This document shows, piece after piece, positions 77 through 53,562 of a DNA stretch of 64,000 bases. A program made the translations under genes and the position numbers. Source of the DNA: a virus. Within the stretch, counting starts at the first letter, position 1. Each line of letters opens with the position of its first letter. The stretch spans positions 8,622 to 72,621 of the IMG/VR virus record IMGVR_UViG_3300045988_055118, one strand, 5' to 3'. The notes under the pieces are model-generated. The model saw only the letters and a program-made list of their open reading frames with translations. It was not told the origin of the DNA and did not search any database.

Positions 77-601
77 TTTTACAAATCAATTATTTTTCCA
101 TGAATCATCTTTTAACCAAGGTCTGTCTTGTAGCCAAGTTCCGCTACCAAAACAGCTTCTAACAGCATCGTATACGGTAAGCCAGACTAACTACGACCCT
201 TTATATATAGCTCCAATGTTCTTTTGTACTCTTTGCTAAACTTGTTCTACAAGTTCTAGAATATCTTTTTGGACCTGTAATATTAACTTACCATTTCTAT
301 ATATCATAATTTAGCAAAATCTTCCTTGACTTTAGCTTTTATCTATTTTAATATGTTAAGATATTCCTTATATTCATTAATAACTTCAGAATCAGAAGTA
401 AGATTTTCTGAATAGCTATTATATGAATTGATTAAATCAAATTCTTCATCAACTGTAAGGAATCTTCTAACTATAGCTTTTACACAATCTTTGTAATTAG
501 GCTGCCCATTTAATAATACCTAGATAAAACTATAGTAAGTTTTTTCTTTTATGGTATTGTCTAAATCAAGTACTTCAACACTAATTTCTTTTATATCATA
601 G

Positions 602-1876
602 TTATAGTAATAAGTACCGTTCCCAAGTTTTTGGATTGTCTAAGGATAAACGTCCATTTGTATTCTATTCGGCTCTAACATAAGGTGTTATTTTAAAATT
701 TATAGGAAATTTGTATCTAAGCAAAGAATAGTGTAATCTCCTATTCTTACTTTTAAAATAGTAGGGTTTATTGTTATACATGAAATGCACTCGAAAATGA
801 TTGTCATAATCAACAACCTCTACAATGTGAATATATTTATTATAAAACTTAGATATGTTAACTTCTTTTCCATTCCAGTTAGAGAATTTCAATCCAGTTA
901 ACTCCTCTACCTTTCTCAGCAAGTTCTTAGAGTTGCAAAATTTCATCCATCCAAAATAAGACCTCATTCTTCTATTCAATTCATCTTTATCAATCTTATT
1001 CTATTTATATAGATTTATAAGCCTAAACATCCTCATTTTTATAGATTTTCTCAGTAGAACATGAGTATGATAGAATTTATAGCCTACGAAATCAATACCT
1101 CTGCTTTCTACAGGGAATATTTGATAATTAGGCTTCAACTCTAGGTTAAGAACCTGTTTCAAATATAGTTTTATAGATACTAATACATTTCTCAAATAAT
1201 TCTTGTCATTACCAAGAATCACAATATCGTCAGCATATCGAAAGTAGTACTTACATTTTAACTCCTCTTTTACCCAGTGGTCAAAATATGTCAGATATAA
1301 ATTTGCAAAGAATTGTGATAGATAATTTCCAATAGGAACTCCCTTCGCTGAATAAATTATTTCTTTCAACAGTTTTAATAGTTTTTTATCCTTTATCTTT
1401 CTCTATAACATTTCGTATAAAATGTCGTGAGTTATAGAAGGATAGAATTTTTTTATATCCATTTTCAAGCAATACTTTGTTTCTTCTGGATGTTTCTATA
1501 ACACCTTGAACAAATCATACTCTACTTTATGAATACCTCTATTTCGTATAGAGGAATATGTTTGGTCTATAAATATACTAGTCCAAATAGGCTCCATAAT
1601 ATTCATTATAGCATGGTGAGTTATTCTATCTGGATAGTATGGAAGTCTAAAGATTAATCTTTCTTTAGGTTCGTATATTATAAAGGTACTATATTCAGAG
1701 GTTTGATAAATCAAATCCCTTAACTTATCGGATAATTCCTTATTTTCTTTTAATCTATTCTTATCATGCTGCTTGATTCCACATCTAATAGACTTATTTC
1801 TTCTAGCTTTATCGTCAGCTAGTTCGATGTTATCTTCAGCGTATACTTTCTCGTGCAAATATCCTACACGTTTCAA
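602..1876 (-). CDS. DGR-type reverse transcriptase; one reading frame containing two in-frame TAG codons (1001-1003, 1496-1498) plus a third TAG (665-667) near the 3' end before the TAA
   Basis: ORF-track pieces 1496..1876, 1001..1369 and 665..979 are all in the same frame, and only TAG separates them (manual translation of 1370-1495 shows TAG at 1403-1405 and 1496-1498 and no other stop). RT motifs are present: DIKKFYPSITHDIL (motif 1/2), GVPIGNYLSQFFANLYL, FRYADDIVILG (YxDD). A TR repeat and a VR-bearing target gene lie immediately upstream. Alternative TTG start at 1876; TAA stop at 602-604. Confidence 0.8.
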
Positions 1877-2019
1877 TTTTTTATATATTTCATCGGAAGC
1901 GTTCGAGAATTAACCTACTAACACCCTTCATTCAACACTACGTTATCTTTTACCTAGAGGCAAGGATATTACTTAGCAAACTAAAAAAAAATAATAAAAT
2001 GTTTCTAAATATATAATAA

Positions 2020-2110
2020 CTCGACATTGGAATTGGCATTGCTGACGTCATTGTTAGAATTGAAATAGCTGAGACCTGCATTGCTGCCATTATTCGCGTT
2101 GCTGCCTACT
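2020..2110 (-). repeat. DGR template repeat (TR), 91 nt, adenine-rich (AAY codons), noncoding, between target gene and RT
   Basis: Near-identical to VR1 (2221-2311) and VR2 (29053-29143). All 20 and 17 mismatches, respectively, fall at TR adenines in the manual alignment. Separated from the RT start by a 143-nt spacer (1877-2019). Confidence 0.8.
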
Positions 2111-2193
2111 AGCAGTACTTTTTTGCCAATCAACGGTTTTTAGAAGTAATATCCTACGATTTATCATCTAAATCGATTTTTATATTGTATATC

Positions 2194-3501
2194 TTAAGAT
2201 ACTCTATTCAGAGTCCTGAACCCGACATAGGAACTGGCATAGCCGACGCCAATGCTAGAATAGAAATAGCCGAGACCCGCACTGCCGCCATAATCCGCGC
2301 CGCCGCCCACCCGCAGCGTGCGAAGCGCTGTGCTGCTTGCGTTGCAGTAATGGTAATCGCAAATATAAGTAGTAGCACTTCCTCCAACAGTGGATGGAAT
2401 TATTTCAGCGGTTTCACCTAAGTCAAATGCCTTAATATAACCATCAGATGCTACTTCGTATCCTGCAACGGTTTTCTCTCCAACTACGTCGGTAAATTCC
2501 GATACGTTAGTAGTTGTATAGACAGTGCTAATCTCATTAGCAGCTGCTCTCACTATAACTACTCCGTCCAGGTTAGTCCAAATGTCTCCAAACGGATTAT
2601 CGAACCCTCTCCAGCGAGGTACTTTAAATGTATGAGTTGCTACTGTATTTGTGCCATCTTGAGCTGTACATTCTGGAATAACTAAATCTTTTACTCCAGT
2701 GAAGTTACCAAATTCATTGCAGTAACCACAAGGCGTAAGTGGATATGTTGCATTATATCCTGACCAACTTGTAGCTGCGTTAGCCCAATCTGTAACTCCA
2801 AGTCCCAAACCCCCTTGATGATATCCATCCGCAGTTAACTCTGCATTATATGCAGCCTAAGAATTAAAATTAGCATATTCAATGACATAATTCCAGTAGA
2901 ATATCCATTTGTAATATTCATAGCATAGCAATTCTGAACCAGCATTTGTTGCATATGTTCTCATAGTAGCTCTAGAAATATTAGTTCTAGGCTTTCCTAA
3001 ATCACTTCTGAATATATCCTTAGTTTCTAATTCTGTAGTTAGATAATCATCGTAGTTAGCTCTATTTCCTCCACCTCTAAATGCAGTAGTAGTATTAACT
3101 ACTGATACAGCTTTTGGAGTTGCGGAGACTGTGGTATCAACTGTACTTCTGTATGCATCTATTAATAGTTCAGGAATTTCTACCCATGAATCATCAATTT
3201 TGACAGTAGAAGTTCTAACCCATCTTTTGTTTCCATCGCTGCCAGATTTTCCATAAAATTTAGGAGTATTAACTCTTACTGTTCCATCAGTTCCATCTAA
3301 GACAGATGGAGTTTCTCCGTCTTCTTTATAAGACCAGTCATCTGGAAACAGATAGTAATTTACTACATCATTGTTTGCTACACAACCTCTATACGCTGAT
3401 TGAATAGGAAGAGATTTATGTAGCAAAGGATTACCTATTCTAGTAAGTTCCGGAGATGCTACTGTAACATCCCATTCTACTCCATAGGAATATAAATCCA
3501 T
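2194..3501 (-). CDS. DGR target protein (C-terminal variable domain), TAG-interrupted; N-terminus extends further upstream through additional in-frame TAGs
   Basis: ORF-track pieces 2857..3501 and 2194..2808 are in the same frame, separated by TAG at 2857-2859. The C-terminal 30 aa are encoded by VR1. Terminates at TAA 2194-2196, which is followed by further in-frame stops (TGA, TAA, TAA), so TAA is a real stop here. Confidence 0.65.
2207..2220 (-). other. hairpin (TTCAG-AGTC-CTGAA) immediately 3' of VR1; candidate DGR target-recognition hairpin
   Basis: Perfect 5-bp stem with 4-nt loop directly abutting the VR end, analogous to the hairpin/cruciform downstream of VR in characterised DGRs. 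Confidence 0.4.
2221..2311 (-). repeat. DGR variable repeat 1 (VR1) at the 3' end of the target gene
   Basis: 91-nt match to TR. 20 differences, all at positions where TR has A. Locally GC-rich (gccgccgcccacccgcagcg) in an otherwise AT-rich genome. Encodes GGGADYGGSAGLGYFYSSIGVGYASSYVG. Confidence 0.8.
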
Positions 3502-4460
3502 ATTACTATTTAGCTCAGTAATCTACTTATCAAGCTTTTGTTGTGCCTTCTACAATTCTTCCCAAGCCTCATTTAGCGCTGTAAATTGCTCTTCTAGCTT
3601 AGAACTTGAATCTGCCCATTCAGCAGTACCATCTGCTGAGAAAACTAGCATCTATCCAGATGCTCCTCCAGATGGAATATGTTTATTTCCAGAAGTAGTT
3701 GGATGTACATAATTATTAGCATTATTAGCTATAGTACTTAACTTTTCCTTCTCAGTTTCAGTATAATTGGCTTCAGAAAGTCCCTTTCCTAACTCCTTAT
3801 CTACTTTGCCTTCAAGCTCACCCTTAGTAGCTAATTCACTAATATCCTAATGCTCAGTTAAATATCCACTATCATTCTGTAACTAAGAAGTTTTAGTTGG
3901 AATTGCATTAGCCTTGGCATATGTCGTATCTATAACATTTCCAGCACCATCGTAAGTAGCTTTTAAATCGTATGTGGTTTCCCCAACCTTTATAGATTTG
4001 ATTGCTGCCATATCATTGTATTATTAAAGTTTCATCAACTACATCGTGATCTATTCCCTCTATGGAAGCAGTTAGGTCCTCAACAGCCTTCTACAATTCT
4101 GCTTTAGTAGCATAGTTCTTGAGAACTTCCTAGTCTACTCCAGAGCCTCCTCCTATACTTCCTCCAACAACTTTTACTGGTTTGGCAGAACTCTTAAACT
4201 GTCCTTCAATATAAATTGTTCCCATATTGTTTAAAATATTAATTGTTCATTTTCTCCATCTACCTCTACACTAGAACCTGGCTATAAAGCGTCTATCTTT
4301 TTCTACAATTCGGCTACGGCCTAGCTAATTAGTTCTTCTACCTCAGCTTTGGTGTAGTATCTCTCTATAAGATATTCGCTCCTAACATATCCAGTATCTT
4401 GTAAATCTTTTTCTCCATAGGTGCAATAATAAGTATCTTCTTCAGTCTTACTATTCTCAA

Positions 4461-15029: not shown

Positions 15030-15392
15030 AAATTCCTGATACTTAGCTTTAATGCCGTCTTCACCTAATTGTTCAGCATAAGCTTGTAAATCCTATTCAG
15101 ATTGTACTTGTATTCCCTACGCAGCGGCATCTTGTATTAGATATGCCATAAATGCTTTTTGTAATTCTTCCTAGTTAGCCATTACTCTTCTACTTTAATT
15201 AAATCCTTAGTATTAAACACTGCTTCCTACATAAGTCCGGAATCAGTAAACCATCTACATCTTAATCCTCGTAATCCTTGGTTATCTTTAAATAAAGCTG
15301 CTTCTCTTCTTAGAACAAGCATAACTGGAGAATGCATTACTTTACACTACCGTAAAGTAACACAATCCCCAGGCTTAAAATAAACTTTTTCA

Positions 15393-15995
15393 TCAATTGT
15401 TTCCATACTTCAATTCGTTTCTTCTTTCAGTTAGCTTTTCGTTAACTACAGCCATAATTCTGTTCTCATTAACTACAACAAATCCAAACTTGTAGAACGG
15501 AACCATGCACTCGCTAGCTATTGTATAGAATACTATATCTCCAGGTTTTAGGAACTCACACTTGTGCCCAACCTCAATAACAGTACCCACTTTAATAAAT
15601 TGTTGTTCTTCTTCTATTTCTCCTGTTTCATTAGATTTATATGTTGGAGCAAACCCACCTAAGTCTGTAATTAATCCACTCTTAGTAGTTTTAATTTTTT
15701 GAAACGGATTTTGTTCGAAAGGTTTAATTAATGCATACCCATACATAGGCATAATTTCTACACCATTCATATCCTCAGATAATGATTTGGCGTAAGATTC
15801 TAAAGCTGCATTATGTTTCGAGAATTTATCTTCTAATTCATCTACTGCTGTATTGAATCTTTCCTGTTTTTCTCTTAATAAAGTTTTATCTGCAGCTTCT
15901 CCATTTACTATAAGGTGCTGTCCTGTACCTTCCATACCAGTTATAGCTAGTGCTAGTTTCTCATTACTGTTCAATTCTGTTCTTAAAGTTTCCAT
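15393..15995 (-). CDS. GroES-like domain protein with N-terminal coiled coil
   Basis: Intact 200-aa ORF (TGA stop, no TAG). The C-terminal half has GroES-like spacing (ALIKP...KTTKSGLI...GTVIEVG...LKPGDIVFY). Confidence 0.35.
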   Translation of the reverse strand: METLRTELNSNEKLALAITGMEGTGQHLIVNGEAADKTLLREKQERFNTAVDELEDKFSKHNAALESYAKSLSEDMNGVEIMPMYGYALIKPFEQNPFQKIKTTKSGLITDLGGFAPTYKSNETGEIEEEQQFIKVGTVIEVGHKCEFLKPGDIVFYTIASECMVPFYKFGFVVVNENRIMAVVNEKLTERRNELKYGNN

Positions 15996-16096
15996 AATTC
16001 ATTTTACCATTTACATAAATCACAATGTTCATCTTCTATTCTAGTTTTGTTCTCTAGTATACAACCACACTCCTCACATACTTCTCCAAATGAAGT

Positions 16097-16342
16097 CTAT
16101 AATTTATGAGGACAAGTATTACAAATATTTAATCTTGTGGTTGCTAAATCTTGATTAATTCCAAATATATGGAAATATATACTCTTCAATATTACTAAAG
16201 GTTTAGTAAATATTGCTTTAATCCATTTCTTTGGCATCTTTTCAGTAGGTTCTTGAGTCATAAGTATATAAGCCTTAGTAGGGTTAGCCATTACTGGAGT
16301 CCCATATAGTAATAAATTATTTACCATTTCTTCGCAGGACAA
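16097..16342 (-). CDS. hypothetical protein
   Basis: 81-aa ORF; overlaps the next ORF by 22 nt. Confidence 0.3.
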   Translation of the reverse strand: MSCEEMVNNLLLYGTPVMANPTKAYILMTQEPTEKMPKKWIKAIFTKPLVILKSIYFHIFGINQDLATTRLNICNTCPHKL

Positions 16343-16536
16343 TGCTTCTTCTCATTAGGTATCTTTAATTCCAGTAGACATCCACATCCTTTTATATACC
16401 CTTCTTTTGGGCCAATACTTATGTCATTGTTTTCTGGATTTAAATACAACTGTCCATTACATATTGCATCTTCTTGATTACATATTGGACAGCGTCTACA
16501 TATTTTCCATCTTTCTTCTATTTCCTCTAGTGTCAT
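16321..16536 (-). CDS. Cys-rich zinc-ribbon-like small protein
   Basis: CRRCPIC...CNG...CGC...HCP pattern; TAA stop. Confidence 0.4.
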   Translation of the reverse strand: MTLEEIEERWKICRRCPICNQEDAICNGQLYLNPENNDISIGPKEGYIKGCGCLLELKIPNEKKHCPAKKW

Positions 16537-16538
16537 AA

Positions 16539-17453
16539 TTAATATTCAATACGTTGACGTTTCTTTTTATTTTCTGCCAATATAGATTCTTTCTTGTAAA
16601 AAGAAAGCATTCTTATTACTTCATCTTTTAAGTATGGTAAGTGATATACTGTCATGTTATCACTGTGGTCGAAGTGTACTAAAACTAAATCTTCAATTTC
16701 AAATTCTGGGTTTTTCTTCTGAATCATCCAGGCGTAAGTACTTAGCTGAAGGGCATAATGCCAATAATTAACATCATCTAAATTATTTAGAGGATACTTC
16801 ATCTTAACTGATGTCTTAGTTTTAGAATTAAAGAAACTCTTTGTTTCTATTTTTTTATTAGTCTTCCAGTCACCAATAATTATCTTATTACCTCTTTTAA
16901 CTAATAAGTCAATTTGTCCAGCTATTCTTAGTTTTCCGTCCTCAGATACTCTAGAGATTAGATACTCAGGATATACCCCATTCTCCAAATCTAGATTGTT
17001 ATAGTCTTTTATACACTCAAACTTGCCACCTATTTGATATTTACTTAGGTCTATATCCTTCTTCTTTTTGTAAAAAGAGTTTTCCAAATCTGCATGGATT
17101 CTAGTTCCTCTCTCGCAAGAGTTTCTGTTCTCCATATCCCATGCATCTAAGATAGCTTGTTGTTCTTTATTAAACTCGTCTTCTGTAATGTTATGAAGTT
17201 CAAGTAGAACTTTGTCAAATTTCTTAGTATTCAGCAGAGACTTTTTCTCGATAGCCCAATCTTCTTTAGGTAGAAGTTTCTCTAGTGCTTTATAAGCTGA
17301 CCAGAACTCTTTATCAAAGGGTTGGGTGAAAGAATGAATTAAAGTCGTTACAGATATAAATTTCTGTTCTGGCTTTGTAACATCATAATAAATATGAGCT
17401 TCCTCTTCGAAAGCTATGTTCCCATTTTGTTTTGTAATTTTACTTTTGTCCAT
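16539..17453 (-). CDS. PD-(D/E)xK family exonuclease (RecB/YqaJ/Cas4-like fold)
   Basis: 304-aa intact ORF. IAGQIDLLVKRGNKIIIGDWKTNK (D...D/ExK) followed by YALQLSTYAWM (QxxxY) motifs. Confidence 0.55.
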   Translation of the reverse strand: MDKSKITKQNGNIAFEEEAHIYYDVTKPEQKFISVTTLIHSFTQPFDKEFWSAYKALEKLLPKEDWAIEKKSLLNTKKFDKVLLELHNITEDEFNKEQQAILDAWDMENRNSCERGTRIHADLENSFYKKKKDIDLSKYQIGGKFECIKDYNNLDLENGVYPEYLISRVSEDGKLRIAGQIDLLVKRGNKIIIGDWKTNKKIETKSFFNSKTKTSVKMKYPLNNLDDVNYWHYALQLSTYAWMIQKKNPEFEIEDLVLVHFDHSDNMTVYHLPYLKDEVIRMLSFYKKESILAENKKKRQRIEY

Positions 17454-17567
17454 TAGTCATAATTCATTTAATCATTTATCACATTTATCTATATTTATTT
17501 GATACTTTTCAAGTATATTAATATTCTTTGTAAGATACAAATCAATAAATAATACATTATATTAAAA

Positions 17568-17909
17568 ATGTCTAATATGACAAAAATGGTAACATTTGGA
17601 TGTCCAATTTTTAAAAACGGGTCAGGCATTCATATTAAAGAGAAAAACAAAGGTAAATTTACTGCCTCTGCTAAGGCTGCAGGATAGTCTGTACAGGAAC
17701 ATGCTAAATCTGTACTAAACAATCCTAATGCTACTCCTCTTCAGAAGAAGCGTGCTAACTTTGCTAGAAACGCGGCTAAATGGAAACACGAAGATGGAGC
17801 TAAGATACATAAACCAAGTGGACATAGATCTATTCTAGATAATGGATGGATTCCTACTACTAGATTAAAGAAAGGAAATTATGGATTAATTAAAACAAGA
17901 AAGCAATGA
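17568..17909 (+). CDS. small basic protein with one in-frame TAG (recoded)
   Basis: ATG 17568, TGA 17907-17909, single in-frame TAG after ...AKAAG. Not in the ORF track because it is split by the TAG. Confidence 0.4.
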
Positions 17910-17984
17910 ACGCTGTAGTTAAATTAATTAAAGAATTTATACTTAAGATATATCTTTATTTACTATTTATATTTAATAAGTAAT

Positions 17985-18176
17985 ATGGACTATAATAGAG
18001 CAACTCTTTATGCGGCTACTGGTCGTACTTTATTACTCCCTGGCTGGAAAGGGTATTTTTATTGGGACTATACTAAGAATGAATTAAATTTTAGAAATGG
18101 AGACTATCATTTAGATAACAAATAGCTCAAGGAGAAAGGAGTTATGGAACGTAATGATTGGTATTATATAATATGA
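17985..18176 (+). CDS. small protein with one in-frame TAG (recoded)
   Basis: MDYNRATLYAATGRTLLLPGWKGYFYWDYTKNELNFRNGDYHLDNK-TAG-LKEKGVMERNDWYYII; ends TGA. Confidence 0.3.
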
Positions 18177-18301
18177 TAATTAAAAATAATATTATACCGT
18201 TTGGAGGTTATAAAGTAATTAATCTGTTTGGATTAATATTTACTAAGTCGGATTTGACTGATGAGGATAAGAATCACGAGAATATCCATTCAGTATAGAT
18301 T

Positions 18302-18520
18302 TTGGAATGTGCAATAGCGTTTGCAATACTTATATCTATATTATTTGGATTAGAATGGGTATGGTTAGCTATTCCATCTTTCTATATCTGGTATGGATTA
18401 GAGTATTTAATTATACGACTATTAAGACTTAAAGATTCTCAAAATGATTGCTACAGAGATGTAAGCTTTGAAGAAGAAGCTTATATGAATGAAGACAATT
18501 TACAGTATCTAGAAGGATAG
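18302..18520 (+). CDS. small membrane protein (ORF ends at TAG; may read through 15 more codons to TAA)
   Basis: Hydrophobic N-terminus AIAFAILISILFGLEWVWLAIPSFYIWYGL. Confidence 0.35.
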   Translation: MECAIAFAILISILFGLEWVWLAIPSFYIWYGLEYLIIRLLRLKDSQNDCYRDVSFEEEAYMNEDNLQYLEG

Positions 18521-18609
18521 AGAAAGATGTTTTCATGGATAAAATATCTAAAAGTTAACGCATAACAAAATAGGCGAGCCTAGACTTAATTGTCTAAGTT
18601 CGCCTATTT

Positions 18610-18813
18610 TTATTTACTATTATACGTACAAGTGATTCTGTTTGGCTCTTCCCACCAAGGTTTATCTGAAAGTGGAGTTCTGATGCTATTGGGCCAATTT
18701 ATAATTGGAGTAGTTTCCTCTACTATAGCCTCCATTATTTTAAATAATGTATCCAAGTCTAGCTCTGGAAGCAGCTCATGAATATTAGTTATTGTTTTCT
18801 TATAATTTATCAT
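18610..18813 (-). CDS. hypothetical protein
   Basis: 67-aa ORF with TAA stop; opposite-strand ORF 18590..18781 judged spurious. Confidence 0.3.
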   Translation of the reverse strand: MINYKKTITNIHELLPELDLDTLFKIMEAIVEETTPIINWPNSIRTPLSDKPWWEEPNRITCTYNSK

Positions 18814-19032
18814 ATCCTTTAAAAGTGTTGTTAATAATTACTTTCTCTATCGTAGTATTTACTGACATATTAGTACGATACACTTAGCTTATTTAAGTTG
18901 TCTAGATAATCTAAGAACCATTGTTCGTTTTGTTTTCCTTCTTCTACAATAGTATTAATTAAAGATTCTGTAGCTAATAGTGTTATTTCTGCTAGTTCCT
19001 CTAATTCCGATTTAGTAAGTTCGTTATATTTT

Positions 19033-19347
19033 TCAATCAAGTTTAACATAATCCATCCAGTCTTTTATATATGATTTACATTCTTCCAAATCTGGATAGA
19101 TACTTGTTATAGAGCATCCAGTTTTCGGATTTTTAAAGTGGTGCATCTTAGCCTCTTCTTTTTTCTCCTCTTCTGTATTTCTATTTAATGTTCTATTCCA
19201 ATAGTTGTACTTTTCATCTAACATTTCCATATCACATTCCTCTAATATTTTCATATTAGGGTTATTCATTATCTTGTCGTATTTTCTCTTTAAATTAGAG
19301 ACTTTGACAACATCATTTCCATTTAATACAACTGCACACTGTTTCAT
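19033..19347 (-). CDS. hypothetical protein
   Basis: 104-aa ORF, TGA stop. Confidence 0.4.
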   Translation of the reverse strand: MKQCAVVLNGNDVVKVSNLKRKYDKIMNNPNMKILEECDMEMLDEKYNYWNRTLNRNTEEEKKEEAKMHHFKNPKTGCSITSIYPDLEECKSYIKDWMDYVKLD

Positions 19348-19571
19348 TTTAATACCTTATAAGTACATATCTTACCTATCTGTTTTCCTTGAACTGTTAT
19401 TTGCGGAAGAAAATAGCAGGCTTGATTCTCAAATTCTTGAGGTACAAAGATATAATCAAACTTACTTCCAACTACCTTCTCACAAACTTTATTCCAATCG
19501 TCTCCCTCTTCTATAATAAGAGTTTTAGCTCCTGTTGGAGTTACTACATAATTCTCATTTAATTTTATCAT
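19344..19571 (-). CDS. hypothetical protein (start trimmed to avoid tRNA)
   Basis: The ORF-track N-terminus overlaps the suppressor tRNA. Internal Met (MIKLNENYVV...) at 19571 chosen as start. Confidence 0.35.
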   Translation of the reverse strand: MIKLNENYVVTPTGAKTLIIEEGDDWNKVCEKVVGSKFDYIFVPQEFENQACYFLPQITVQGKQIGKICTYKVLK

Positions 19572-19589
19572 AACTATTAATTTTGGCGT

Positions 19590-19661
19590 TGCCCTACTAG
19601 GATTCGAACCCAGACTAAATGATTTAGAGTCATCTGTGCTGACCATTACACCATAGGGCAG
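19590..19661 (-). tRNA. amber suppressor tRNA, anticodon CUA (reads UAG), Gln-type
   Basis: Manual fold: acceptor TGCCCTA/TAGGGCA with U1-A72 (Gln hallmark), D arm GTGT/GCAC, anticodon stem GATGA/TCATT, loop CTCTAAA (U33, CTA, A37), T arm CTGGG-TTCGAAT-CCTAG. D and T arms nearly identical to the genomic tRNA-Gln(TTG) at 34204. Confidence 0.8.
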
Positions 19662-19798
19662 TAACTTATTTCTCTTTTAGAGATTTATTTTCTGCTGCCA
19701 ATTTCTCTAGTTCTTTTCTTAATTGTTCATTTTCGTGAAATAAAGCCTGCATAGTAGCGTTGATATTAGCTAATAGTATTCTCATTTGAGCAACCTAT

Positions 19799-20200
19799 TC
19801 ATACATAAGCTTTCAGTTGTTCAATTCTCTTTTTAGCTATATCTGACAATGCCATTTTGAATTTAGCAATACCAGCTCTTACTGTTTCTAACTTGCCGCT
19901 TTCTAAGCATTCTTGTATTTTATGAACTTCAAGCTCTCCTAGATATTCGCATACATCTATAAATAAATCATCATCTAGAGATTCTAAATATTTCTGGAAT
20001 TGGTCTACCTCTTCATTAGCTAGACAGCTTTCTTCCTTCTATCTTTCATAAGATATTAATAAGAACAAAGAATCGTCGGTAGATTCGGACTTAATAGTTA
20101 GCCCATTACCAGACATATAATATTCTTGATTCGTATTAATTGCCTCAACTAGCTATTTAAACTAGTCCTAATTTAACAATGTTTCTAAGTCTGTAATCAT
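19799..20200 (-). CDS. hypothetical protein with four in-frame TAG codons near N-terminus
   Basis: ATG at 20200; frame open to TGA at 19799-19801 if TAG is sense. Confidence 0.35.
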
Positions 20201-20518
20201 AATTGTTTTCTTTTTAGTTATATACAACAATAACCTCCGAAAAGTTAAACGCAAAGTTAAAAAATTCTAATTCAAATATTATACATATTTTATATATTAA
20301 GGGGAAAGCCGGTACAGGTACTTTATATAAATAGCCCCCTGGGGTTATTATAAATTCCGACTTTTATATTTGGAGGGCAATTACCTAGATTCCAAAAATT
20401 CATAGAGTGAGTGTAGTGGCGGTCCACAACCCCTTTAGTCCCCCCCTGTATATTGATATAAAACTAAAACAAAAACAAAAATCAATTTCCAGTATTAACA
20501 TTTTAAAATTTCAAGATT
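20201..20518. promoter_or_regulatory. divergent intergenic region between late (minus) and plus-strand blocks; probable divergent promoters and/or origin
   Basis: 318 nt noncoding, AT-rich with three short GC-rich islands (ggggaaagccggtacaggtac; tagccccctggggtt; gtggcggtccacaacccctttagtcccccctg). Confidence 0.4.
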
Positions 20519-20965
20519 ATGACACTCGAAGAATTGAAAGACCAGAACGTAAGCGCAGTAGAAAGAGCTAAGGCAGTAGTATCAGCATTAGGCTTAAAAG
20601 GAGATGAACGCTCAGTTGTTGTCGGCTTGTCAAAGGGCGATAAGTTTAAATTGGTAGCAATGAACAAGGTAGATTTGCCTGCAAATGCTAACCAACCAAA
20701 CCAAAGCAACTTTACACCGATTACATTTAGCACTGACACAGGTGCAACCATTGGTGCAAAACACTTTGCGGGCGTAGAAATCGACGACGATGCTCCGGCA
20801 ATCGGTTCAACTCCGTTGGAAAATGCCGCTTTCCTTGTTTATTGCATTGACCACAATGTAACATTTAAGGTAGACAAAAAGGTAACGGAAGACATCGAAG
20901 CTACCACCGACCGCCAAGCCTACAAGAAAAATACTTACAAGCTGGTAGTGGAAGACTATGATTAA
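20519..20965 (+). CDS. hypothetical protein (first gene of plus block)
   Basis: 148-aa ORF, TAA stop; overlapping minus ORF 20503..20751 judged spurious. Confidence 0.5.
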   Translation: MTLEELKDQNVSAVERAKAVVSALGLKGDERSVVVGLSKGDKFKLVAMNKVDLPANANQPNQSNFTPITFSTDTGATIGAKHFAGVEIDDDAPAIGSTPLENAAFLVYCIDHNVTFKVDKKVTEDIEATTDRQAYKKNTYKLVVEDYD

Positions 20966-21016
20966 AAGATTGGGGAGAAATCCCCTTTCTTTTACATACA
21001 AATAATCTTTGTAGAA

Positions 21017-21211
21017 ATGGACATAAGAAAAAAGTTTAAGACTATAAAGTGTTTGTATAATTGGGGCATAATCTATGACCCAAAGACTAATGAAAAGTTA
21101 AATTTCAAAGCCAAACGTGTTTATTGCGTAACTTCTTGGGCTTGGATTATGACCTATCAAAAGTCAGAAGAAGATATTCCTGAGATAATTAGGATAGTCT
21201 TTGTAGATTAA
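21017..21211 (+). CDS. hypothetical protein
   Basis: 64-aa ORF. Confidence 0.3.
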   Translation: MDIRKKFKTIKCLYNWGIIYDPKTNEKLNFKAKRVYCVTSWAWIMTYQKSEEDIPEIIRIVFVD

Positions 21212-21945
21212 CTCTAAGGTACTATGAGTTTTAAATAAAGTGCCCACATGAACCCCATCATCGGAACGTTGGTTAACGGGGAAAACAACATCACAACAAA
21301 TCAAATCAAAGTTTTTGTTTAGTTTTAGGATTATATCTGGCAGCTTGGAAAGACAAGCAAAATCTTTATACCTATCTGCTAATAGGTTTAGTGTTCAACG
21401 CGAAAATTCGGTAAAGGAAGGAGAGAAATTGTCCACTAAAAAGACCCTCAATTTCCGGACTTTTTCCGATTTTCAAAAAATCCGCCAGAGTAGGAGTTAT
21501 ATAGCTCACACTCTCTATGGACATTATTTAGTATTTAGCCTATAAAAAGGCAACAAAAAGCGAGGCTACGCAGAAGAGCCTAACACCAAAAATAACTGCT
21601 ACAAATTCTATGTGCATATTCGCAAACTTGAGCACTATAGGATTTAGGTTGAGCTATAAGGATTGGTCACTTATAGCAATATTATGAGTACTGCTGATAT
21701 GTCAGTGACCGTACATATCACATATAAAATATGTTATACAATTATGTTAGAAGTTGCCAGGTCTAAGAAGCCTGATTAAAATCTCTAGATAGTAAGAGAG
21801 AACCTCATAAGGGTTCATTTTCCATCTCGAACCTATTCGCAAGTTTATAGACTAGCTATCTATAAATTTAGTGAACGTTGATAACGTCCTCAGCATGGAA
21901 AACTGAGAAATAATCTCCTATCTTATTCTAGATATAGATAGGATT

Positions 21946-52738: not shown

Positions 52739-53144
52739 ATTTAATCAGATTTTTTGTGAGGATTTGAAAGATGATTTCGAGGAAGCTGGTAGGCATGAGA
52801 GAAATTTCGAGTTAGACGAGTTTATTCAGAAGGATTTAAGTAGAGCATTTGCGTTTGGTTATTGTCATTTAGACTGGATAAAGGAGAAAATGTGGTTTCC
52901 TGTTCCTATTAGGAAGGCTTTACGGCATTTAGGAGACGACCTAGAAGATTTTGCTCCTCAGCTTAAATGGCTTAACGAAAAATATGGTGCTATAGGAAAG
53001 AGAGTTAGAATTGTTGATTATGCAAACTATATTTTAGATAATATATTTTGTGACAATCAAGACGATTTGCTAAAGATAGCAATATTACTCGGAACTAACA
53101 TGAGAGTAAATACTGCTGATGAGCAGGCTAGAAGTGTTCACTGA
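52731..53144 (+). CDS. hypothetical protein
   Basis: 137 aa. Confidence 0.45.
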   Translation: MIEFNQIFCEDLKDDFEEAGRHERNFELDEFIQKDLSRAFAFGYCHLDWIKEKMWFPVPIRKALRHLGDDLEDFAPQLKWLNEKYGAIGKRVRIVDYANYILDNIFCDNQDDLLKIAILLGTNMRVNTADEQARSVH

Positions 53145-53562
53145 TGGAGCTTTTAGCTCGTCTAGAGACACAGGAGGAGTAGGAGTTGTATTCGTAATTG
53201 ATGGGGAAAAAGCCTATGAATTTAGTAAGATGATTCCTAATACTACTAATAATAAATGTGAGTTGTTAGCAGTAATTTATGCTCTAAATGCAGTAAGTCG
53301 TAAAATCGAATCTCTGACTATTTACTCAGATTCTCAGTACGTCATAGGATGTGCTACTAAAGGATGGAAAAGAAAGAAGAATGTAGAGTTATGGAATTTA
53401 TACGACAAGGTCTTAAATAAGGCAAAGCAATTTTGTCCTAATATAGACTTTTGTTGGGTGAAAGGACATACTTCAAGTTCAGACTTCTTTTCTCAGATGA
53501 ATAATCTCGCAGATAAATTAGCAGTTGAAGCAAGTCAGGAATATGAAACTAAGAAAGAATAA
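53119..53562 (+). CDS. rnhA: ribonuclease HI
   Basis: VFTDGAFSS...GGVGVV; CELLAVIYAL; IYSDSQYVI; WVKGH...NLADKLA (RNase H DEDD/H layout). Confidence 0.65.
   Translation: MSRLEVFTDGAFSSSRDTGGVGVVFVIDGEKAYEFSKMIPNTTNNKCELLAVIYALNAVSRKIESLTIYSDSQYVIGCATKGWKRKKNVELWNLYDKVLNKAKQFCPNIDFCWVKGHTSSSDFFSQMNNLADKLAVEASQEYETKKE

Follow-up and report, generated by a model that had tools for sequence, protein, structure and literature searches.

One template, two targets: an active diversity-generating retroelement without an Avd gene in the analysed stretch of an amber-recoded crAss-like phage

The 64,000-nucleotide stretch of IMG/VR record IMGVR_UViG_3300045988_055118 analysed here (hereafter the window) is part of a crAss-like gut phage genome of ~186 kb, and it carries a diversity-generating retroelement (DGR) in the order target gene, template repeat (TR), reverse transcriptase (RT) gene. 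We conclude, with a probability of roughly 0.93, that this DGR is active, has an architecture that lacks accessory genes, and uses a single template to rewrite variable repeats (VRs) in two target genes of a phage that probably belongs to the zeta group. Elements of this kind are already described: DGRs that lack Avd and carry amber codons in the RT gene were published in 2025 for zeta crAss-like phages (PMC12386605). The present analysis adds a distant second target, a covarying RNA scaffold that is maintained without Avd, an origin-symmetric orientation of the two targets, and a nucleotide-context bias at template adenines that precede guanine. The original prediction, made from the DNA letters alone, had proposed a four-part minus-strand cassette consisting of an RT, a spacer, a TR and a VR-bearing target. 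All of these parts are present and behave like those of a DGR. The second variable repeat (VR2), the conserved RNA structure at the TR and the prior publication of the arrangement (PMC12386605) were not among the features it described.

The TR and the first variable repeat (VR1) are direct repeats on the same strand, which makes the reverse complementation originally proposed for their alignment unnecessary. An ungapped minus-strand alignment at an offset of 201 spans 98 nucleotides and contains 21 mismatches, 20 of which fall at TR adenines (15 A>G and 5 A>T). The sole mismatch at another base is a T>G change at the 5′ edge (2111/2312). The hypergeometric probability that all 21 mismatches would fall on the 30 adenines among the 98 positions is ~1e-14. 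Within the slightly shorter repeat delimited earlier (2020-2110), 20 of 20 differences sit at TR adenines, just as had been claimed, and tabulating mismatches by TR base yields the same adenine specificity rather than a spread over the other bases. The predicted 143-nucleotide spacer likewise holds with the TR end used at that time, and measures 141 nucleotides from the TR end at 2018 to the TTG start codon of the RT.

Within target gene 1, which is 605 codons long, VR1 takes up codons about -40 to -8 and lies, as had been noticed, on a GC-rich island (61% G+C, versus ~35% for the window). When the TR is read in the VR1 frame, 27 of its 30 adenines occupy codon positions 1 and 2, and none of its codons is able to mutate into a stop. 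Counting only the positions that vary in nature, the repertoire amounts to ~1.5e14 protein variants. The 5-bp hairpin that was said to abut the 3′ end of VR1 is also there (DNA fold of -3.2 kcal/mol), and it forms part of a candidate initiation of mutagenic homing (IMH) element. Relatives lend the hairpin modest support: some carry the stem as TTTAG/CTAAA, a compensatory pair of changes that are both synonymous, and others break one pair. The VRs end in GTCGGG and the TR in GTCGAG; none of the genomes compared departs from this A/G difference (index 94), which is likely the counterpart of the IMH*/IMH distinction.

The DGR is demonstrably active, and both of its VRs are diversified in nature. 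An IMG/VR scan returned 305 RT relatives, from which 80 loci were kept. The TR is identical (98/98) in 20 of 28 related genomes compared, and the VR1 sequences of these 20 genomes all differ. Specifically, 26 of the 30 TR-adenine columns are variable in VR1, mostly with all four bases represented, and the remaining columns are near-invariant except for one locus with a 5′ indel and the T/G polymorphism at the edge. It is because genomes with identical TRs all differ in VR1, almost exclusively at TR-adenine positions, that we consider the element active. The diversified core spans TR indices 12-88 (2027-2103 in the window TR). Similarly, 67 of the 80 related RT loci yield a total of 64 unique TR/VR pairs with adenine-specific differences. 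The VR heterogeneity anticipated by the original prediction is therefore present across related genomes, where it is seen between assemblies.

A search of the window with the TR skeleton, in which adenine positions were ignored, reveals VR2 within codons 116-147 of a 186-codon gene. VR2 matches the TR at 64 of 68 non-adenine positions and differs from it at 17 adenines; between 29052 and 29143 all 17 differences are at TR adenines. Among 35 related loci, VR2 is hypervariable at the same TR-adenine positions as VR1, and equally so. Moreover, polymorphisms of the TR are inherited by the VR2 of the same genome. Where the TR carries T at indices 17, 29, 44 and 92, so does VR2 (locus pairs L090/L029 and L103/L025), and a C at TR index 7 reappears in VR2 of that genome (L111/L021). 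An exact scan for the non-adenine skeleton finds exactly three copies in each of 12 near-complete genomes (183-192 kb): VR1 next to the TR, and a third copy that lies on the other strand. Given these three copies and the fact that VR2 variation follows the TR of its own genome, one TR therefore serves two targets. VR2 is a second target of the same TR and is new here.

Table 1. Features of the retroelement, its two targets and the suppressor tRNA, numbered from the first nucleotide of the window.
Feature	Position	Strand	Remarks
Reverse transcriptase gene	665..1876	-	403 codons to TAG 665-667; 424 to TAA 602-604
Structured spacer RNA, Rfam RT-17-like	1879..1967	-	P1 1950-1963, P2/P3 1895-1926
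TR-bracketing duplex, predicted 3′ arm, AAGUAAUAUCCU	1963..1974	-	directly 5′ of hairpin P1
TR, non-coding	2018..2115	-	30 A; 10 AAY codons in VR frame
TR-bracketing duplex, predicted 5′ arm, AGGAUAUUACUU	2144..2155	-	pairs 12/12 with 1963-1974
Target gene 1, tail-fibre protein	2194..4011	-	605 codons; 6 in-frame TAG; TAA stop 2194-2196
Hairpin TTCAG-GACT-CTGAA, candidate IMH plus stem-loop	2207..2220	-	abuts VR1 3′ end; GTCGGG before hairpin
VR1	2219..2316	-	79% identity to TR; diversified core ~2228-2304
Suppressor tRNA, anticodon CUA, Gln-like	19588..19660	-	ARAGORN; Rfam tRNA 66 bits
Target gene 2, PHROG 11581 (unknown function)	28703..29263	+	186 amino acids; no TAG; standard-code block, after tRNA-His
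VR2	29048..29145	+	opposite strand to TR, ~27 kb away; A-only region 29052-29143

Sequence comparisons support the assignment of the RT to the DGR clade, with the Bordetella phage DGR RT as its closest relative among solved structures. The profile searches that had been proposed as a check recover the RT with Pfam RVT_1 (E=1e-19) and with PHROG 1423 'reverse transcriptase' (E=2e-113). The protein carries the DGR-type motif 4 (IGxxxSQ) in the form PIGNYLSQ, together with YADD. Its best solved-structure relative is the 328-residue RT 8ub7_A (with eight further entries), which has IGSLTSQ and YMDD and matches at E=4e-45, versus ~1e-15 at best for retron-type and group II RT structures. The depositors name this chain only 'Reverse transcriptase'; we take it to be the Bordetella phage bRT.

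The original prediction saw no avd-like open reading frame (ORF) beside the TR. Indeed, none of the 52 small ORFs of the 64-kb window matches the Avd family in Pfam at E<=0.01, and the 78 nucleotides between the stop codon of target gene 1 and the TR leave no room for avd, which supports the absence of an Avd-type accessory gene within the window. It is unlikely, though well short of negligible, that an active DGR here depends on an accessory that has escaped recognition, be it an avd gene beyond the window, the extra C-terminal residues of the RT, or a small downstream ORF. Avd is essential in the Bordetella system (PMC5758913), and RT residues ~330-403 lie past the end of the alignment to the 328-residue solved RT (aligned residues 43-329). 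These ~70 additional residues are conserved in loci L001-L058 and absent from the shorter RTs of loci L059-L081. Also, a small acidic minus-strand ORF (304-656; PHROG 11557) overlaps the 3′ end of the RT gene and follows the RT in all of the long-RT relatives (L001-L058). Considered as a DGR accessory gene, this ORF was rejected, since IAS virus has it with no RT annotated beside it; it is probably a conserved phage late gene. The Pfam result for the 52 small ORFs also speaks against a hidden accessory. In a broader survey, avd was present in 74% of DGRs, 29% of 372 DGRs had no accessory gene, and one whole lineage was devoid of avd (PMC5758913). Regardless, dependence on such an accessory is a refinement of the active DGR that we propose rather than a true rival to it.

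Very improbable, by comparison, is a decayed element, with fossil repeats, a relic RT and TAG codons that inactivate the RT as nonsense mutations. Read with the standard code, the RT frame has four breaks, and fragmented RT genes have been reported in some crAss-like phages (PMC11054128). However, the breaks are of one kind. The motifs KFYPSI, GVPIGNYLSQFFANLYL and YADD all lie, as originally stated, in a minus-strand frame (602-1909) that is interrupted by TAG only, at 1496-1498, 1403-1405 and 1001-1003 (codons 127, 158 and 292) and at 665-667 near the end. TAG is likewise the sole interrupting codon in all of the neighbouring late genes, which have as many as 28 per gene. A comparison of 66 distinct RT variants in related contigs puts TAG opposite invariant glutamines, the Q of GxxxSQ (15 TAG versus 51 Q) and Q252 (10 TAG versus 55 Q); individual RTs contain 0 to 10 TAG codons. 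The tRNA with anticodon CUA shares 57 of 73 positions with tRNA-Gln(UUG) of the same phage, far more than with the other tRNAs. TAG is read as glutamine in the RT because it aligns with an invariant glutamine in relatives and because the tRNA-CUA is Gln-like. Furthermore, full-length conservation of the RT amounts to 87-99% in dozens of genomes, and both VR1 and VR2 differ between genomes with identical TRs. The data thus contradict a fossil element.

The first TAG of the RT (codon 127) is upstream of all catalytic motifs, and target gene 1 also contains TAG codons; therefore, both the full-length RT and the full-length tail fibre need the suppressor, a dependence that the original prediction had recognised for the RT. 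It is reasonable to infer that this requirement ties diversification to the late phase of infection. The RT of the window's lineage starts with TTG (1874-1876), versus ATG at the aligned position in more distant relatives, which suggests that its translation may be initiated weakly. At the other end of the gene (602-667, minus strand), codon 404 is TAG and is followed by 20 sense codons before TAA, in a segment shared with the beginning of the next ORF. Some relatives have GAA or AAA as codon 404 and retain the tail.

Less probable still is that VR variability results from ordinary positive selection or recombination acting on a receptor-binding tip, with the TR being a chance resemblance or a duplicated copy that templates nothing. 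The receptor-binding tips of phage fibres are commonly hypervariable, but here the variation is limited to TR-adenine positions, with mismatches at only 11 of 3443 non-adenine positions over the 64 TR/VR pairs, and the same skeleton occurs in two unrelated genes that both track the TR polymorphisms of their own genome. Equally hard to credit is an RT of another class (retron, group II intron or defence RT) that adjoins the repeats by chance: its matches to curated NCBIfam models, a collection that holds no DGR RT model, are significant but all miss their cut-offs (group II RT, 113 versus 300 bits; retron St85, 70 versus 235; Drt3a, 62 versus 200), a DGR-type RT with an IGxxxSQ motif 4 is the best solved relative by 30 orders of magnitude, Rfam finds no intron RNA domains or retron msr/msd, and the TR-spacer-RT arrangement is conserved among related loci.

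Comparative analysis indicates that the TR is bracketed in the RNA by a covarying 12-bp duplex and is followed by a structured spacer that resembles the RT-17 motif of Rfam. The putative 5′ arm of the duplex is located 28 nucleotides upstream of the TR. On the other side, hairpin P1 is followed by an A-rich stretch (AAAAGAUAAC) and by P2/P3, which has conserved UAGUA and GAA sequences. The spacer of the window scores 24.8 bits against RT-17 (E=0.013 for 401 nucleotides), below the gathering score of 40.4, and two related loci (L059 and L072) score 43.7 and 40.8 bits at the corresponding site, immediately upstream of their RT start. In a 25-sequence alignment that includes the window, 96% of cells in P1 and the second helix are paired, versus 35-54% when the partners are slid. 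These helices contain 43 double-change cells, and none of 500 shuffles reaches the observed values.

Support for the duplex comes from an anchored test across lineages and not from single-sequence statistics. In this test, the 12 nucleotides that precede P1 find a 12/12 complement upstream of the TR in 8 lineages with different sequences, and for each of them only 0-3 of 2000 shuffles do as well. Both partners have changed in 8 of the 12 pairs, in a comparison whose pairing percentage is biased by the choice of arms as the best duplexes. In one sequence a 12-bp duplex is not significant (129 of 1000 shuffles reach 12 pairs when G-U is allowed), and the single-sequence fold of the TR plus spacer RNA is no better than that of shuffles (z=+1.22). 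A similar RNA architecture has been described for the Bordetella RNA and for Avd-carrying DGRs (bioRxiv 10.1101/2023.10.23.563531). Like RT-17 (RF03020, from the RT-1 to RT-19 series), the spacer lies immediately 5′ of an RT gene and appears to form a P1 hairpin of the type CCUUGCC-NNNN-GGCAAAA and a UAGUA/CGAA helix. Unlike RT-17 as published, the motif here is situated in the TR-RT spacer of DGRs. The publication placed RT-10 in the BPP-1 spacer and only speculated on the other RT motifs (Weinberg et al., 2017; PMC5737381).

These observations are consistent with the following course of events. An RNA that spans at least position 2155 to the RT gene would be transcribed, in which the 12-bp duplex would close the TR into a loop, followed by the hairpin, the A-rich stretch and the second helix of the RT-17-like spacer. 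The spacer of the Bordetella element supplies the priming adenosine (PMC6182149), and the spacer here may have a comparable priming role. The RT would be translated only when the phage Gln-tRNA(CUA) reads the three internal TAG codons. Complementary DNA (cDNA) would then replace two stretches: VR1, at the tail-fibre C-terminus, and VR2, within the 186-residue protein 27 kb away on the other strand. Both VRs are directed away from the GC-skew minimum near 20 kb, with VR1 on the minus strand of the left arm and VR2 on the plus strand of the right arm. If the origin is indeed located there, as judged from the skew and the published layout of zeta genomes only, then the cDNA would be complementary to the lagging-strand template at both targets, and its integration may be linked to replication. 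When the BPP-1 DGR was reconstituted, editing improved by a factor of up to tens for targets directed away from oriC, owing to the complementarity of the cDNA to the lagging-strand template in that orientation (PMC12875486). The natural orientation of both VRs would fit this experimental result.

The base that follows a template adenine is strongly associated with the outcome. In the 64 unique TR/VR pairs (loci L002-L081), where many of the observations are of the same site in related genomes, a TR adenine followed by G (n=330) corresponds in the VR to A in 6%, C in 0%, G in 94% and T in 0% of cases. When the adenine is followed by A (n=573), the VR has A in 27%, C in 14%, G in 29% and T in 30%. 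The figure of 94% G is the same in distant lineages alone, and in the window all eight TR adenines that precede G (2110, 2107, 2103, 2085, 2077, 2070, 2043 and 2021) are G in both VRs. Four-fold synonymous third codon positions obey the same rule (58 G, 3 A and 0 C/T of 61), and thus amino-acid selection alone is insufficient as an explanation. This suggests an enzymatic or repair bias rather than selection at the protein level, with repair or nucleotide-level selection both being possible sources. For the BPP-1 enzyme, the base 3′ of the adenine has the strongest influence and dC misincorporation is favoured (PMC12875486). The 're-use of the preceding template base' model proposed for that enzyme (PMC12875486) would also yield AG to GG changes. 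The penetrance of the bias is far above that reported for BPP-1 (PMC12875486). The Avd-less RT may write G opposite-strand-wise at 5′-AG-3′ template sites almost deterministically.

The two diversified proteins have little in common beyond the repeats. The product of target gene 1 matches PHROG 5302 'tail protein' (E=5e-85), and its gene is syntenic with that of the tail protein adjoining the RT in crAss phage cr7_1. Among the two targets, a VGFR ending and a WRGFxNxFGxIW motif are reminiscent of C-type lectin (or immunoglobulin) domains. Sequence and profile searches of Pfam and the PDB return no match for the target 1 protein, and the target alignments contain little effective diversity, as VR variants crowd the match lists. 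C-type lectin models have been reported for the tail fibres of zeta crAss-like phages (PMC12386605).

Target 2 belongs to a broad family of small proteins (~180-215 residues; 364 clusters at 50% identity) in which the G/A skeleton of the VR is conserved, and in a family alignment 11 residues within 121-145 are hypervariable. Sequence and profile searches give target 2 no relative in Pfam or among solved structures, and it has no match in 50,697 GenBank phage records. A Foldseek comparison of its predicted model with the PDB gives only meaningless matches (best E=0.13, TM-score ~0.25). Profile-profile comparison of the two targets confines their similarity to 41 VR columns. Accordingly, a simple copy of the fibre tip was rejected as an account of target 2, whose likeness to the tip is limited to the VR. 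The end of its gene is overlapped by a lipoprotein-like ORF (29251-29511, plus strand; lipobox LLLLASC) with DnaJ-type CxxCxGxG zinc-finger motifs, which is followed by an ORF with a signal peptide (29508-29813).

We tentatively raise the possibility that target 2 represents a new class of DGR-diversified phage protein, encoded among early or middle standard-code genes and with an embedded VR that is followed by a conserved helix, and that the Avd-less RT keeps a TR-bracketing duplex of the Avd type. We consider this less likely than not. If it is true and target 2 is not a virion protein, then the phage hypermutates an intracellular or early-acting binder, for example one directed against a host factor, alongside its tail fibre.

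Several observations weigh against the interpretation of this element as an active, Avd-independent DGR with two targets. The evidence for activity consists of differences between assembled genomes and not of reads within one sample. The IMH-like element is very short (GTCGGG in the VRs, GTCGAG in the TR), and the hairpin 3′ of VR1 is kept only in part among relatives. No conserved hairpin follows VR2, since the one that occurs 13 nucleotides downstream in the window is not kept in relatives. The fold of neither target is established: AlphaFold models have pLDDT (predicted local distance difference test) values of 37.6 for the C-terminal 220 residues of the tail fibre (32 sequences) and 52.9 for target 2 (33-sequence alignment). 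The spacer of the window itself falls under the RT-17 threshold, and the position of the origin derives from GC skew, which is confounded with coding-strand bias. Finally, an Avd could be encoded outside the 64-kb window, elsewhere in the ~186-kb genome.

The phage is probably a zeta crAss-like phage on indirect evidence: related contigs measure 183-193 kb, and the window combines amber recoding with 28 tRNA genes and a pair of divergent gene blocks. In addition, its RT is similar to the 414-residue RTs of TAG-free relatives, and this length is reported for three zeta phages (PMC12386605). As in the zeta cassettes, a tail-fibre gene with a C-terminal VR is followed by the TR and the RT within a reverse-oriented virion block, and the RT has GxxxSQ, ~400-414 residues and a variable C-terminus (PMC12386605). 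Amber codons occur inside RT genes there too (7 of 18 cassettes), a suppressor tRNA-CUA is present, and Avd is absent from all but two genomes (PMC12386605). Zeta genomes also have two gene blocks that diverge from the predicted origin and many tRNA genes (PMC12386605). The published cassettes have one VR each, save for Lera and ct1yV3 with several TR-VR pairs; a distant second target in a small protein of the forward block and the RNA structure flanking the TR are not described in that paper (PMC12386605). It analysed 43 genomes (PMC12386605), and the lineage of the window may be among them.

The element shares with the prototype DGR, that of Bordetella phage BPP-1 (mtd-avd-TR-brt), an adenine-specific transfer from TR to VR, AAY codons, a stem-loop after the VR (here only a candidate one) and a TR-RT spacer of similar length (~140 nucleotides in BPP-1 versus 141 here). 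Unlike BPP-1, it lacks an avd gene between VR and TR, serves a second target and has a very short IMH-like element. Its RT has ~70 additional C-terminal residues and a TTG start, and both the RT and target 1 require amber suppression. A TR-RT core without an accessory gene corresponds to the Architecture A DGRs of Wu et al. (2018; PMC5758913). Phage DGRs often have non-adjacent targets, at distances of up to 50 kb from the RT (PMC5758913), versus ~27 kb here. That survey is older than the description of crAss-like and recoded phages (PMC5758913).

This system is an unusually clean natural case in which one invariant template rewrites two genes across dozens of near-identical genomes, and it provides in silico evidence that a DGR is active in a gut phage that is abundant but uncultured. 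Standard-code annotation hides such elements because TAG splits both the RT and its target. Three leads follow from it: the distant small target protein, the RNA scaffold in a lineage that lacks Avd, and the two targets that point away from a putative origin.

At the nucleotide level, positions 300-4100 best match the tail-protein and RT genes of crAss phages, cr7_1 among them (~65% identity), and the window has no close relative among the GenBank phages searched. Recoding is limited to minus-strand genes below ~15.2 kb: from there down to position 1, long ORFs exist only with TAG read-through, and plus-strand genes from ~23 kb onwards have essentially no in-frame TAG. The intervening minus-strand segment (15200-23000) contains the proximal part of the minus-strand block (ORFs at ~15.4-20.8 kb), which includes tRNA-CUA and has 0-1 in-frame TAG per ORF, and all of the minus-strand genes distal to it are heavily recoded. 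A TAG-poor proximal part that carries the suppressor, together with recoded distal genes, fits a program in which the suppressor is expressed first and the recoded genes later. ARAGORN identifies 28 tRNA genes in the window, including the one with anticodon CUA, and the sign of the GC skew flips near 20 kb, where the two divergent gene blocks meet.

Other features of the window are noted for completeness. On the plus strand, an ORF at 53119-53562 is recognised by Pfam RNase H (E=5e-25); its product could in principle process RNA-cDNA hybrids, but a replication gene is the probable identity. A RAGATH-14 RNA (RF03145) at 21749-22016 of the same strand scores 174 bits versus a gathering score of 149. 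Its position is immediately upstream of a tRNA whose anticodon, UUA, would decode the stop codon TAA; despite this tRNA, TAA is apparently still the stop codon of the late genes. A sub-threshold match to the RAGATH-1 hammerhead ribozyme (29.7 versus 56.3 bits) occurs at 24002-24078 (plus strand), and positions 24017-24054 are 97% identical to unannotated DNA of crAss phages cr131_1 and cr272_1. Near the junction of the divergent gene blocks, ~50 nucleotides of the plus strand (23277-23328) contain the inverted repeat CTCAAT-13 nucleotides-ATTGAG and are 96-100% identical to unannotated DNA in more than 10 otherwise distantly related crAss-like phages.

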